Assembly: GCA_041576165.1 (NCBI GenBank)
Contig: JBFGLM010000001.1
Coordinates: forward strand, 151,176-215,175
Source of the DNA: Acidimicrobiia bacterium
Lineage (GTDB): Bacteria; Actinomycetota; Acidimicrobiia; Spongiisociales; Spongiisociaceae
Reading direction: 5' to 3'
Length of the DNA: 64,000 bases
Below the pieces are notes generated by a model. The model searched no databases. It saw nothing but the letters and a program-made list of their open reading frames with translations, and was not told the origin of the DNA. Positions 19,190-58,436 of this stretch are shown in pieces; the first letter of the stretch is position 1; every line of letters starts with the position of its first letter. The position numbers and the translations under genes are program-made.

Positions 19190-20111
19190 CAGCCACTCCT
19201 ACTCGGATGAACGAATCAATCGCCGCTGCTATCTCGCCAGCGTGCGTCAACGGTGCCTCATGGCGCGCACCCTCTAGCTCCAAGACCGTGACGTCCGCCA
19301 GCCGTAGAGCAAGATCGTACTGGTGCGTGGCGGGAATCAGCTGGTCGGACGTCGTGATGATGGCCAGCGTCGGTGCTTCGATCTCGCCGACCCACTCCCG
19401 GGAATCGAATCGCAGCGAAACGAACCCGGTCTGCCAGTACAGCTCCGGATCTCGGGACATCTGCTCGTTCCACAGCCACTTGGCGTGGGATGGCGGGAAC
19501 ACACCACGCTTGAGTAGATATCGGTACCGAGCGGCGGACAGCTCGGTGCGGCTCAACCGATCAAGGGCCCGGCTGAGCAGAAACAGCCCCCGAGATGCCC
19601 AGCGTTGCAGACCCGACATGGCGCCCGCCGACGTTCCTCCGAGGATCAGGAATCCGACCTTAGAGGGGTATCGGTGCGCCAGGCTCTGGGCCACCATCCC
19701 GCCCATGGAGTAGCCAACGACATCGACCTTCCCTAGTCCCAGTTCGTCGATCACGCCGGCCACATCGTCGGCGGCGTCCGAGATTTCGTACCTCCCCCGC
19801 CTCCGAGCTGATCGGCCGTGGTTGCGCTGGTCGATCATCACCACATCGCGCGATTGCGCAAGCAGTGGTGCGATTCGCTGCCAAACGATCGCACTGTGGT
19901 CTCCCCACCCGTGTATCAGCACGATAGGAGGACTCTCGGGCGTGCCGACTCGCCGGATGAAGAACTCGTGCTCGTCCACAAACAGGCTACGGCCGGGCAC
20001 CGGCCACGGGTGCACCTGTGGGGCCGGCGGACGCGGCCGCGGCTCGGGGCCGAATAACCGCCAGACCAGGCAGGCCCCCGCGACCGGCATCGCCCAGTCG
20101 CGCAACCTCAC
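19179..20111 (-). CDS. Alpha/beta fold hydrolase
   Basis: LIHGWG, DQRNHGRS, GYSMGG nucleophile, GARH; GTGA overlap with the selD stop. Confidence 0.92.
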   Translation of the reverse strand: MRLRDWAMPVAGACLVWRLFGPEPRPRPPAPQVHPWPVPGRSLFVDEHEFFIRRVGTPESPPIVLIHGWGDHSAIVWQRIAPLLAQSRDVVMIDQRNHGRSARRRGRYEISDAADDVAGVIDELGLGKVDVVGYSMGGMVAQSLAHRYPSKVGFLILGGTSAGAMSGLQRWASRGLFLLSRALDRLSRTELSAARYRYLLKRGVFPPSHAKWLWNEQMSRDPELYWQTGFVSLRFDSREWVGEIEAPTLAIITTSDQLIPATHQYDLALRLADVTVLELEGARHEAPLTHAGEIAAAIDSFIRVGVADDA

Positions 20112-21151
20112 CCGTGGACCTCGATCCGCCCGGCCTCGCCCTCTGCCACCTCTCCGATGATCGCAGCCGTCACATTGCGCGCGGCCATCTGTTCCAGCAG
20201 AGCTTCCGCTGCGTCGGGGGAAATCGAGAGCAGCAGGCCCCCGCTGGTTTGCGCGTCGGCCAGGATCTTGATCATGACGTCGTCCACGCCGTCGACTTTC
20301 AGATGGGGGGTCACAGACTCCAGATTGCGACCGCTGCCACCGGGATACACGCCGGCCTCAGCAAGAGCAAGCACGCCATCGAGCAGCGGGACGGCCCCGG
20401 CGAAGACCGACGCTCGCAAGCCGGACCCGACCAAGATCTCACGGAGATGGCCGAGCAGTCCGAACCCCGTCACGTCGGTGCCCGCGCTGACCCCTACAGT
20501 CCGTGCTGCGTCCGCCGCGCGATCGTTCAGCTCTACCATCGTCTCGATCGCGGCCGCGATCACCCCCGGCTCGGCCTTCCCTTCCTTGATGGCCGTGGCG
20601 ATGATTCCCGTGCCCAGCGGCTTGGTCAGCACCAGCACATCGCCGGGTCGGGCCCCGTCGTTGGTGATGAGGTGCTCGGTCTGCACCGTGCCGGTGACGG
20701 CGAACCCGTACTTGGGCTCGGCGTCGTCGATCGAGTGGCCGCCGACAATGGTGCAGGCGGCCGCCGCCATCACATCGGCGCCACCCTCCAGCACCCGGCC
20801 CAGCACCTCGAAAGGTATCGCGTCCCGGGGCCAGCCGATCAACTGCAGTGCAGTGGCCGGAACTCCACCCATCGCATATACATCCGAGAGGGCGTTGGCC
20901 GCGGCGATGCGACCCCAGTCGTACGGGTCGTCGACGACCGGGGTGAAGAAATCGACCGTCTGTACGATCGTTTCACCGCCGGGCAGACGAAAGACGCCTG
21001 CGTCGTCCGAGGTCGTGAAACCGACCAGCAGGTCAGGGTGGGTCGTCGAGGGATGGGATGTCAGAGGGCGCAGGACCTGCGCCAGCTCGCCGGGACCGAG
21101 CTTGCAGGCTCAACCCGCCCCGTGAGAGAACGACGTCAGTCGCACGTCCAT
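20108..21151 (-). CDS. selD: Selenophosphate synthetase SelD, selenocysteine-containing (TGA 21112-21110 = U14)
   Basis: MDVRLTSFSHGAG-TGA-ACKLGP continues in frame to DDAGV, TVDFFTP, NALSDVYAMGG, GGHS, DVTGFGL and DAQTSGGLL. Confidence 0.96.
21067..21109 (-). promoter_or_regulatory. Candidate bacterial SECIS of selD
   Basis: After UGA: hairpin AGCUCG/CGAGCU (+8..+26) and perfect GGCGCAG-GUC-CUGCGCC (+27..+43). Confidence 0.65.
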
Positions 21152-55198: not shown

Positions 55199-56464
55199 TC
55201 AGCGCCGTCGCCGACCCCGTCCCTTGGGACGGGACGGGCGGGAGCCTGATCGAGCTGAACCCCGAGGGCTGCGCCGGCGCGGGGCACCTCCCGAGGTTCT
55301 CCGACCGGTCGTGGGGAATTGGGGGACTTGTACACGGGAGCCGGAGCGGCCCACCCGGATCCGGGGAGCCCGGGGCCGGGAACGACTCGCCCGTTGCATC
55401 TCGCGCATGATCACCGCTATGGCGCCCAACCCGCCCAACGATCCCAGCCCGCCTCCCCCCCGGCCGGACGGTACCGGCCGTTGACGTTCGCGCCGCATGT
55501 CCAGCTCGGGCGGAAGATCGGCCCGGCGGCCCGGCGGTGTTGGTGCTTCGGGAAACGGCTCAGGCACCGGCTCGGGGGGCACGTCGCGGCCTTCGATGAT
55601 CGCTTCGGCCGATGCCAGCTGCCACAGTATGCGGTCGACCTGATTGCCGAGCTCGTGGATTTCCTCGGGCGTGGTCGCCGAGTCGAGCGCTTCCTGGAAG
55701 TCGGCGTATCCCTGAGCCCCGGCGGCGTACAGCTCCGACGCCCGGTCGTTGTCAGCGACCCGGACCCGGTCCTCCAGCTCGAGAATCTCGTTGGCCGCGG
55801 TGCCCAGCTCTTTGCGTACCTCGTCCTTCAGCGCTTCGAGTCGGGCTGAATCGAGCTCGGCACGGCGCTGCTTGGACCGGCGCGATCTCCAAACAAAGAA
55901 GACGACGGCGGCGGCAACGATCACGATCAGCCACAGGAGTGCCCCGCCGCCACCGCCCGACGACGCTGGCGGGCTCGGCTGGGAAACGACCGTGGGCGTG
56001 GTCAACGCTCCACCGGCGCTGGTCGTCGCAACGGCGGGGACACCGGCCAGCTCTCCGGCAAAGGCCCGAAAACCGTCGGCGTAACTGCGATCGAACAACC
56101 CGATGGCCGCATCCGCCGCCGCGTCGAGGGCTGCATCGTCGTGGTCGTCAGACACGAAACCGAGCTCCCCCGTTGACACGACGATCACGGTTCGGGCCGA
56201 AGAGGCCCGGCGCACCTCTTCGGCGAACAGGTCTGCCCCACCGGGGGGATCCTGGTCCAGAGCCACGAATCCAAAGCCCTGTCCGGCGAATTCGTCAACC
56301 AGCTGCTCCATCATGCCGAAGTCGACCGGGGCGCCATCTTCGACGTAGTAGCCCCGGAAATCCACGCTCTCTGCCGCCTCTGCGGGCTCAGCGGCGGCCA
56401 GCGCCGGAGAAGCACCCGCCAGCATGATGACGCCGCACAGAATCAGCTGTGTCAGGTATCGCAT
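55199..56464 (-). CDS. Exported/membrane protein, TPM-like domain, TM and coiled coil, Gly/Arg-rich tail
   Basis: Signal peptide, single TM, helical region; upstream of pspA. Confidence 0.7.
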   Translation of the reverse strand: MRYLTQLILCGVIMLAGASPALAAAEPAEAAESVDFRGYYVEDGAPVDFGMMEQLVDEFAGQGFGFVALDQDPPGGADLFAEEVRRASSARTVIVVSTGELGFVSDDHDDAALDAAADAAIGLFDRSYADGFRAFAGELAGVPAVATTSAGGALTTPTVVSQPSPPASSGGGGGALLWLIVIVAAAVVFFVWRSRRSKQRRAELDSARLEALKDEVRKELGTAANEILELEDRVRVADNDRASELYAAGAQGYADFQEALDSATTPEEIHELGNQVDRILWQLASAEAIIEGRDVPPEPVPEPFPEAPTPPGRRADLPPELDMRRERQRPVPSGRGGGGLGSLGGLGAIAVIMREMQRASRSRPRAPRIRVGRSGSRVQVPQFPTTGRRTSGGAPRRRSPRGSARSGSRPSRPKGRGRRRR

Positions 56465-56530
56465 GCCCGAGAGGTTAGAGCGAGCCGGCGCCCCGGGCTC
56501 AGCCGGCAAGCGGAGCGGCCCTGCTACGGC

Positions 56531-57410: not shown

Positions 57411-58436
57411 ATGAACCGAATGTTGCTCGCCGGGCTGCTCATTCTCGTCCTCGGCGCGACCGCGCTCTCGTTAGGTCGCAACAGCCGCCCCGATGAAACA
57501 GCGGAACCCGTGCCCAATGTGGCGGTGACGACAGGAGCGGTCCTGTACGACCCCGTCAAGGCCCGTGAACCGCTACCGGACGGGTTTCGCCAACTCATCC
57601 CGCGCGACGGTATTCCGCCTGTCTACGAACCCGCATATGTCCTCGCGGCGGCCGCTCCATGGCCGGACGAGACACTGGTTGTGGGCGTGGCACTCGGGGA
57701 CGAGGCTCGGGCGTATCCGGTCAGCTACCTGAACCGTCGCGAGATGGTCATCGATTCGCTGGCCGGAATCCCGGTCCTGGTCACTTGGTGACCGCTGTGC
57801 GCCACGGCGATGGTCCATCGCCGCGAGATCGACGGAGAAGCGGTCGTCTTCGGTAACCAGGGTGCGTTGTGGGGCAACGCGATGACCTGGTTCGACCACG
57901 CGACCGGCTCGGTGTGGAGCCAGCCGCTGGGGGAGGCCATCGCCGGGCCGCTCAAGGGCACCCGGCTCGAAACCCTCCCGGTCACCCTCACCGAGTGGGC
58001 CAGCTGGCGGGAGTCACACCCGGACACGCTGGCGCTCGACGTCGCCGCCCGGCGGCCCAGCGGCTTCCAGCTGGCCGACATGTCGATTGTCGTGGAGTTG
58101 GTCGACGATGTGGCTGCCTTCCCGGTGGAGGATCTATGGAGGGTCGGCGTGGCCAACGAAGAAGTCGGGGGCGTGCCGCTCGCCGTGGCCGTCGACCCAG
58201 CAGACGATCAGCGCTGGGCCGTCTATTCCCGCACCCTGGACGATGTAGTCGTCACGCTCGAGGTCGAAGGGGATAGCTTCGTTGACGTCGGGACGGGCAG
58301 CCATTTCGACCCACGGGTCGGCCGGGCCATTGATGGACCGCTCGAGGGACAGATTCTCGACGTCCTGCCCGGGTTTACTTCGTTTCTCGACGACTACTTC
58401 ACCTTCTGGCCGGACGGTCGCGTCTGGCAGCCCTGA
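57411..58436 (+). CDS. Exported DUF3179 selenoprotein (TGA 57789-57791 = Sec in a UxxC motif)
   Basis: ORFs ending 57791 and starting 57810 are one frame: PRDGIP, RAYP, EMVID, VTW-TGA-PLCAT, G.LW, D..TGS.WSQ..G.A..GPL.G, W..W...HPDT; start 57411 or 57420. Confidence 0.92.
57805..57823 (+). promoter_or_regulatory. Candidate bacterial SECIS of the DUF3179 gene
   Basis: Perfect CGGCGAUG-GUC-CAUCGCCG hairpin at +14..+32 after UGA. Confidence 0.75.

Follow-up and report, generated by a model that had tools for sequence, protein, structure and literature searches.

The 64,000-nucleotide stretch of Acidimicrobiia DNA analysed here (the window, whose positions are used throughout) carries a gene at 57411-58436 on the plus strand that very probably encodes a single 341-residue protein of the DUF3179 family, in which the UGA at 57789-57791 is decoded as selenocysteine (Sec). 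This reading is carried by the frame, the family assignment, the column shared by Sec and Cys, the conservation of the TGA and of the synonymous sites of a downstream hairpin, the Sec machinery of the genome and the predicted fold, and from these we infer that selenium is actually inserted at this codon. The selenoprotein reading is right but not new, Sec forms of DUF3179 having been in the literature since 2007. What is added here is a nucleotide signature that, among 401 class genomes, was found in one order only, the model of a membrane-anchored Rieske-like tandem, and the fusion of some distant relatives to TlpA-like redoxins.

Reading frame and family of the interrupted gene

The region 57411-58433 forms one frame of 341 codons, closed by a terminal TGA and interrupted only once, by the TGA at 57789-57791, whose surroundings, GTC ACT TGG TGA CCG CTG TGC, encode the motif V-T-W-U-P-L-C. 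Under translation table 11 this frame appears as two open reading frames (ORFs), the first ending at 57791 and the second, of 208 amino acids, starting from the ATG at 57810. An earlier interpretation made from the DNA letters alone (the sequence-only reading) had noticed these two same-frame ORFs parted only by the TGA, the 341-residue product that results from reading through it, and DUF3179 motifs on both sides, and all of these observations hold. Against the Pfam profile of DUF3179 (PF11376), the read-through product scores 190.3 bits (E 6.7e-56, gathering cut-off 27), and its best stretch, amino acids 65-212, covers profile positions 1-150 continuously across the TGA; each piece taken separately also matches the profile (E 5e-13 and 8.7e-30). 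Among the NCBIfam models, none matched the product.

Conservation of the TGA and the Sec/Cys column

The read-through protein was searched for in 41 genomes, namely that of the window (G000) and those of 40 relatives from its family and order. This yielded 14 matches of at least 51% identity, 13 with exactly one TGA (one of them, L033, from the unpublished genome G028) and one with none. All 13 translate as W-U-P-[L/I]-C, and the 14th, L039, reads W-C-P-L-C with a TGC codon. GTDB species genomes, scanned independently, contributed another 31 loci, with TGA in 30 and TGC in one (L069). Counting the window gene in, the codon is therefore TGA in 43 of 45 distinct sequences and TGC in the other two, and no two of the 43 Sec-form sequences are identical within the 72 nt compared.

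The TGA column coincides with the first Cys of the motif [W/Y/F]-C-P-L-C, both in an alignment of 52 family sequences and in a survey that covered 175 proteins of the family. Cys occupies the first motif position in 172 of the 175 proteins and the second Cys position in 170, as the sequence-only reading had anticipated when it expected the TGA to align with the first Cys of a CxxC and the homologs to carry CPLC; a few members read S-x-x-C or C-x-x-S/A/V. The Sec residue (U127) is thus matched by Cys in L039, in L069 and in many Cys-form database proteins. The U-P-L-C motif, encoded at 57789-57800, is the presumed active site.

The hairpin downstream of the TGA

Within the codons of T-A-M-V-H-R-R, at 57805-57823, lies the hairpin CGGCGAUG-GUC-CAUCGCCG, a perfect 8-bp stem (CGGCGAUG/CAUCGCCG) closed by a GUC loop. 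A 13-nt spacer separates it from the TGA and the stem begins at the 14th nucleotide, just where the sequence-only reading had placed it. This hairpin would act as a bacterial selenocysteine insertion sequence (bSECIS), recruiting SelB bearing Sec-tRNA(Sec) to the UGA. The published bSECIS model, as laid out in a figure legend (PMC13188914, Figure 2), has a loop of 3-9 nt with G in its first two positions, a stem of 4-16 bp, a UGA-loop spacing of 16-37 nt and a minimum free energy of at most -7.5 kcal/mol. The window hairpin falls within all four of these ranges, with a loop of 3 nt that opens with G and then U, a stem of 8 bp, 21 nt from UGA to loop and a minimum free energy of -11.7 kcal/mol. 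Folded alone it has a z score of -3.94, and one of 200 shuffles is equally good.

What places the hairpin beyond chance is its conservation in all 43 Sec forms, together with a reversed-pattern control that returned 0. In these 43 sequences the stem codons for Thr (ACG), Ala (GCG) and His (CAT) are each identical in 43 of 43, and the stem Arg codon is CGC in 41 and CGT in 2, the latter retaining a G.U pair. The Val codon in the loop is GTC in 31, GTT in 11 and GTG in one, and the codons on either side, for Pro, Leu, Cys, Gly/Ala and the second Arg, vary freely, 2 to 6 different ones being used at each position. In the Cys form L039 this peptide is specified by ACC, GCA and CAC, synonymous changes that break the stem; in the Cys form L069 the stem is retained.

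The hairpin resembles the bSECIS of the E. coli fdhF type in its position within the coding sequence just after the UGA and in the G and U that open a small apical loop. It is distinguished by an unrelated stem sequence, by a stem that is a plain one of 8 bp and by a triloop that a Val codon supplies. The fdhF SECIS has a bulged base.

Selenocysteine machinery of the genome

Besides the DUF3179 gene, the window contains selD (20108-21151, minus strand), the single selenophosphate synthetase gene of the genome, identified by TIGR00476 (397 bits, above the curated cut-off) and by Pfam AIRS/AIRS_C. Its product supplies the selenium donor for Sec synthesis, and selD is itself a Sec gene, with its sole in-frame TGA at 21112-21110 within the motif S-H-G-A-G-U-A-C-K and a hairpin, GGCGCAG-GUC-CUGCGCC, 26 nt after it. 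The selD and DUF3179 hairpins share the GUC triloop and the GGCG/CGCC stem ends, a likeness in nucleotide sequence that suggests a lineage-specific bSECIS consensus. A search of the window's genome for a TGA followed by this shared consensus found 4 sites (reversed control 0), three of which are in-frame Sec TGAs, in selD, in the window gene and in its paralog on contig C49. The fourth (L114, C33:43000-44800, minus strand) was rejected as a chance match, the preceding TGA lying outside any plausible Sec frame; it sits just downstream of a NuoA-like gene.

The remaining components are also found in the genome. Two selA and two selB genes, adjacent to each other on contigs C24 and C100, all score above curated cut-offs, and ARAGORN identifies tRNA-Sec genes (anticodon TCA) at two places, C1:33376-33466, on the contig of the window, and C145:1292-1382. 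The genes selA, selB and selC, on which the sequence-only reading had made its case depend, are thus all present, together with selD.

Alternative explanations for the in-frame TGA

The simplest objection to a selenoprotein is that the TGA arose by nonsense mutation or assembly error and that the locus is a pseudogene. The frame is indeed broken under table 11, and the assembly is fragmented (161 contigs, 96.5% complete) and somewhat contaminated (7.5%). This explanation is nevertheless extremely unlikely, given that the same codon is TGA in 43 of the 45 distinct orthologs and paralogs, which come from many assemblies, that both halves are conserved as protein, and that a conserved hairpin follows the TGA. 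It is also contradicted by the contigs of four runs from four studies (X1, X5, X6 and X7, labelled marine, marine, mangrove and sediment, respectively). The TGC or TGT that would have betrayed an error was sought there, and no other letter was found at 57789-57791. All four runs have depth across the bin that holds the TGA, and one X1 contig is identical to 57411-57823; X1 may be the sample behind the window assembly. Summed contig depth peaks over 57761-57830, which fits a nucleotide-conserved stretch common to many relatives; contig depth is unable to rank parts of the gene.

If the TGA were instead a true stop, the locus would hold two genes, for a 126-residue anchored N-terminal protein and for the 208-residue protein that gene callers output, the latter starting from the ATG at 57810, 18 nt after the TGA. 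That ATG, however, encodes the conserved Met of T-A-M-V-H-R-R and lies within the hairpin, both the Pfam domain and the beta sheet of the model span the break, the Cys-form homologs are single chains, and the genome possesses Sec machinery, all of which makes a pair of genes very unlikely. A general reassignment of TGA to a sense codon other than Sec is vanishingly improbable, as it has in its favour the in-frame TGA itself and nothing more. Each ortholog contains one TGA, always at the Cys column, and the frame neighbouring the chance match on C33 stops at a TGA, with many TGAs beyond. Moreover, TGA is the terminal codon of 11 of the 13 complete subfamily genes, that is, of the window gene and of 10 of the 12 others, with TAA and TAG used once each (a 14th gene is truncated at a contig end), which identifies TGA as the normal stop of the lineage. 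In the window gene the terminal TGA occupies 58434-58436; a matching hairpin was not seen after it in the sequence read, and this second TGA would terminate translation.

Several observations weigh against Sec decoding at 57789-57791, or at least do not lend it support. None of the RNA runs is listed as containing the gene. At the RNA level, stretches of 42 and 81 nt around the hairpin are no more stable than their shuffles (z -0.6 and -0.47), as is expected in DNA so rich in GC, and folding energy alone is consequently insufficient to raise the hairpin above chance. As the stem is invariant, it offers no compensatory covariation, and the freeze of synonymous sites is the sole signal of this kind. 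A scan of 57700-57900 against Rfam returned nothing for the hairpin; a SECIS_4 match at 57865-57879 was discarded, with an E value of 9 and a position away from the hairpin. Finally, the duplication of selA, selB and tRNA-Sec in an assembly with 7.5% contamination may mean that one organism possesses two Sec systems or that the bin combines two organisms. Set against the concern about mixing is the fact that one tRNA-Sec gene and selD share the window's contig.

Relation to described DUF3179 selenoproteins

That Sec forms of DUF3179 are recognised, as the sequence-only reading stated, agrees with the tables of two reviews, which list DUF3179 as a UxxC/T selenoprotein family and credit Zhang & Gladyshev 2007 (PMC9312934, PMC13188914); the UxxT form given in both retains the Sec only. 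The passages available from the 2007 paper describe the original finding in a deltaproteobacterial worm symbiont without the DUF name, and introduce the new families OS_HP1 and OS_HP2 without showing which of the two corresponds to DUF3179 (PMC1976440). For Actinomarinales, Sec machinery has been reported along with a selD in Sec form, in a 2026 preprint that is not among the papers found on DUF3179. In addition, five relatives with 51-58% identity, from metagenome-assembled genomes (MAGs) of Ilumatobacteraceae, Acidimicrobiia and Actinomycetota, bear the NCBI name 'MAG: DUF3179 domain-containing (seleno)protein'. One protein so named, P0024, is the TGC form L039, and the name is therefore that of the family rather than proof of an annotated Sec.

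The protein encoded in the window shares with the known Sec forms the Pfam family and the place of Sec, as first residue of the CxxC, and is set apart by a TGA and hairpin signature which, among 401 genomes of the class, is restricted to its order. The literature found on DUF3179, PF11376 and Acidimicrobiia selenoproteins contains no published description of the SECIS, fold or partners of this subfamily. Nor does that found on 'DUF3179' or 'PF11376' describe a function, in line with the sequence-only reading, which had considered the function of the family unknown.

Protein architecture and predicted fold

An AlphaFold2 model was built on the 52-sequence alignment, the query having one extra C-terminal residue that corresponds to the terminal TGA, and reached a mean predicted local distance difference test (pLDDT) score of 93.5 and a predicted template modelling (pTM) score of 0.86. 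It consists of a helix (residues 2-23), a low-confidence linker (24-36) and a beta-rich body. The helix coincides with the N-terminal hydrophobic segment (amino acids 1-23, encoded at 57411-57479), a predicted signal anchor. A comparable segment is shared by 38 of the 44 orthologs, and 5 have a lipobox-like signal. Of the six orthologs that depart from this, two are cut by contig or match ends, three have shorter signals of the lipobox type and one has a longer linker. The sequence-only reading had called the protein exported, with a hydrophobic signal or anchor. The N-terminal helix agrees with the second part, but 'exported' is better replaced by membrane-anchored, with the domain probably facing the outside of the membrane.

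The body is modelled as two beta domains. The first (amino acids 96-199, 57696-58007) carries the UxxC: U127 closes the strand 120-127, residues 128-131 form a tight P-L-C-A turn and the next strand covers 132-137. The second (amino acids 229-326, 58095-58388) is an internal duplicate of it, as both halves of the protein are homologous (31% identity, E 6e-10), with the CxxC in the first half only. Structure comparison points to Rieske-type proteins for both domains. In VIA-align searches of 48,161 chains, each with 50 matches listed, matches 1-45 for the whole model were almost all Rieske-type by title, the best being 1vm9_A (Z 8.8, root-mean-square deviation (rmsd) 2.9, 91 aligned residues, over residues 232-326). 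The N-terminal half modelled alone (pLDDT 97) gave an equally uniform list, with 3gce_A and 3dqy_A as best matches (Z 7.7, rmsd 2.8-2.9, 91-95 aligned, almost the entire ferredoxin). A Z of about 8 falls in the range flagged as a possible common arrangement, and the resemblance owes its credibility to the uniformity of the list and to the coverage of the full domain. Foldseek against the PDB returned nothing at E <= 0.001, its best hits being Rieske ferredoxins at E ~0.011, and the family profile found nothing in the PDB by sequence at E <= 1.

Compared with Rieske [2Fe-2S] domains (PF00355), each half superposes on a ferredoxin of about 105 residues (Z 7.7-8.8, rmsd 2.7-3.1, 91-95 residues), and a strand-turn motif in the style of 'F-D-x-x-T-G' is common to both. 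In contrast, the cluster ligands C-x-H and C-x-x-H, which are invariant in 18 Rieske domains from the relatives, have no conserved equivalent in the 175 DUF3179 proteins, and the profile-profile match to these 18 domains is weak (probability 5%, E 0.0075). Taken together, the absent ligands and the weak match indicate that, as modelled, the protein is Rieske-like in fold only. The internal repeat and the profile alignment place U-P-L-C, approximately, in the hairpin that precedes the first cluster loop and not at a ligand position.

With the thioredoxin-fold UxxC/CxxU selenoproteins (DsbA-like, Prx-like, SelW-like), DUF3179 shares a Sec paired with a Cys two residues away. It also shares with thioredoxin-fold oxidoreductases the aromatic residue before the motif (W-U-P-L-C here, W-C-x-x-C in the oxidoreductases) and the association of some relatives with TlpA-like redoxins. 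It differs from them in that its model is rich in beta structure and has the CxxC placed in a beta-hairpin turn; no thioredoxin fold appeared among the 50 matches listed in either VIA-align search, and no thioredoxin-type Pfam match was found.

Possible function of the UxxC pair

There is about an even chance that, as the sequence-only reading proposed, U127 and C130 constitute a redox-active selenol/thiol pair outside the membrane. According to this proposal, the N-terminal helix would anchor the protein, with the U-P-L-C in the hairpin turn of the first of two Rieske-like domains; the U127/C130 pair would cycle via a selenenylsulfide, which would be re-reduced by a TlpA-like redoxin, itself fed by a CcdA-type transporter. 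The link to redoxins comes from domain fusions, to which a structure search of the ESM Atlas with the Cys ortholog P0024 led through a cluster of DUF3179-thioredoxin-like proteins; beyond the family, this search gave no usable feature match. Among 16 long representatives of the family, 4 carry DUF3179 fused to an AhpC-TSA/Redoxin domain, which is N-terminal, follows a signal or lipobox and contains W-C-P-P/F-C; 3 others contain VWA, one NHL repeats and one fn3 repeats, and 7 have DUF3179 only. A second link lies in the window's own genome, at L083 (C2:12500-19000), where a Cys-type DUF3179 paralog divergently adjoins a TlpA-like redoxin gene (L083:3025-4116, minus strand), with a Crp-family regulator and a CcdA-like DsbD_TM gene just beyond, the latter within 2 kb of the paralog. 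This locus is possibly an electron-supply module. The first residue of the motif is more likely to be catalytic in view of the UxxT forms and of the infrequent S-x-x-C variants, and the invariant polar set of the 175-protein survey (Y102, E111, D115, R138, D162, T165 and W169) looks like an active or binding site.

A less probable, though possible, function is that of a soft-metal site, for instance for Cu(I), Hg(II) or Zn, in a factor that binds or handles metal outside the membrane and whose ligands are kept reduced by redoxins. The tight beta-hairpin turn in which the model places the motif has the geometry of metal knuckles, a C-P-x-C in such a turn being their classic shape, and the fold resembles that of a metal-cluster protein. 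TlpA-type redoxins also serve copper chaperones by reducing their cysteines, and the fusions described above therefore fit metal binding too and do not exclude it. The review tables further list predicted UxxC Sec forms of metal-handling families, among them MerT, a cation ATPase and CobW-like proteins (PMC9312934, PMC13188914). Against a metal site stand the presence of only two ligand-type residues, with no conserved His or further Cys in the 175 proteins, the absence of the Rieske cluster ligands, and the UxxT, S-x-x-C and C-x-x-S/A/V members, which are easier to reconcile with a catalytic residue than with a site of two ligands.

The redox proposal, in turn, has the genomic context of the Sec subfamily against it, in addition to the knuckle shape and the dual role of redoxins. 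A tblastn search with one redoxin query found no homolog in the 1.5-3 kb flanks of 44 Sec-subfamily loci, and among 62 loci a redoxin lies near DUF3179 only at the C2 locus of the window's genome, represented twice in the set, and at L045, from the unpublished genome G039. A conserved neighbour was sought across the 44 loci and none was found, the largest non-overlapping neighbour cluster being a second DUF3179 paralog, in 10 loci. The remainder of the probability falls to something other than a redox or soft-metal function.

More tentatively, DUF3179 as a whole may represent a large unrecognised class of redox enzymes outside the membrane, in which a cluster-less, Rieske-derived tandem uses a hairpin-turn C/U-x-x-C as catalytic site and receives electrons from TlpA-like redoxins and CcdA. 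The family comprises 8,268 representative clusters at E <= 0.001. If this were the case, the Sec forms of Acidimicrobiales, with up to three copies per genome and an almost invariant SECIS, would mark the catalytic residue and reveal strong selection on its reactivity. In a family this large and without an assigned function, Sec flags a residue critical to the chemistry, and the Rieske-like tandem, the redoxin fusions and the conserved SECIS offer handles for a first biochemical test.

The VWA, NHL beta-propeller, fn3 and redoxin partners of DUF3179 are typical extracytoplasmic modules. Two of the long proteins, P0122 (1587 amino acids) and P0132 (1004 amino acids), repeat the DUF3179 unit several times within one chain, which also includes fn3 repeats or a redoxin domain.

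Distribution, copy number and gene calling

Most of the related loci are actinobacterial, as had been proposed for the window from its letters. Among the 31 from the GTDB scan, 29 are labelled Acidimicrobiia, Acidimicrobiales, Acidimicrobiaceae, Actinomycetota, Actinobacteria or Actinomycetes, and the exceptions are one Spirochaetia and one 'uncultured bacterium'. A 38-nt signature (TGG TGA through the hairpin, with at most 1 mismatch) was sought in the 401 class genomes, that is, the window's genome and 400 sampled from its class. It was found in 21 of them (control 0), all belonging to the order of the window's genome, and in none of the other orders sampled.

Several genomes contain 2-3 Sec copies. 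The window's genome has three (contigs C1, C49 and C110) in addition to four Cys-type DUF3179 paralogs, and this number need not be an artefact of contamination, as genome G332 has three Sec copies on one contig. In genome G268, a Sec copy (TGA, C19:81753-81790) and a Cys copy (TGC, C19:82905-82942) lie about 1.1 kb apart, share the same hairpin in its CGT variant and look like tandem paralogs.

In a quick tree of 95 sequences, from which the partial gene L041 was excluded and in which the 'Cys' label of 45 database proteins was deduced from their full-length calls, Sec and Cys forms interleave. At least 11-12 changes are needed, of which the well-supported branches force only 1-2. The occurrence of the same hairpin in every Sec form would fit a single origin of Sec followed by repeated Sec-to-Cys replacements.

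The sequence-only reading predicted that standard gene callers would split the gene in two, and this is what has happened. In the protein collection, the product of the window gene is the 208-residue C-terminal piece only, and the gene call of this assembly is wrong. Of the 120 best database matches, 65 are similar C-terminal pieces of 198-234 amino acids, and many representative clusters start exactly at query residue 134. With so many of the nearest database proteins affected by the same error, a census of the DUF3179 family or of Acidimicrobiia selenoproteomes based on standard gene calls would be biased.

Other features of the window

A wider scan of the window for read-through frames gave 154 raw candidates, mostly high-GC noise. 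The neighbours of the DUF3179 gene are unrelated to it and include proC, oriented divergently, as well as genes for a NUDIX protein and for a uridine kinase, both convergent with it. At 55199-56509, on the minus strand, a 436-residue ORF matches the Rv1476 membrane protein family with 25.7 bits, below the cut-off of 26, and has a tail very rich in Arg, Gly and Ser.

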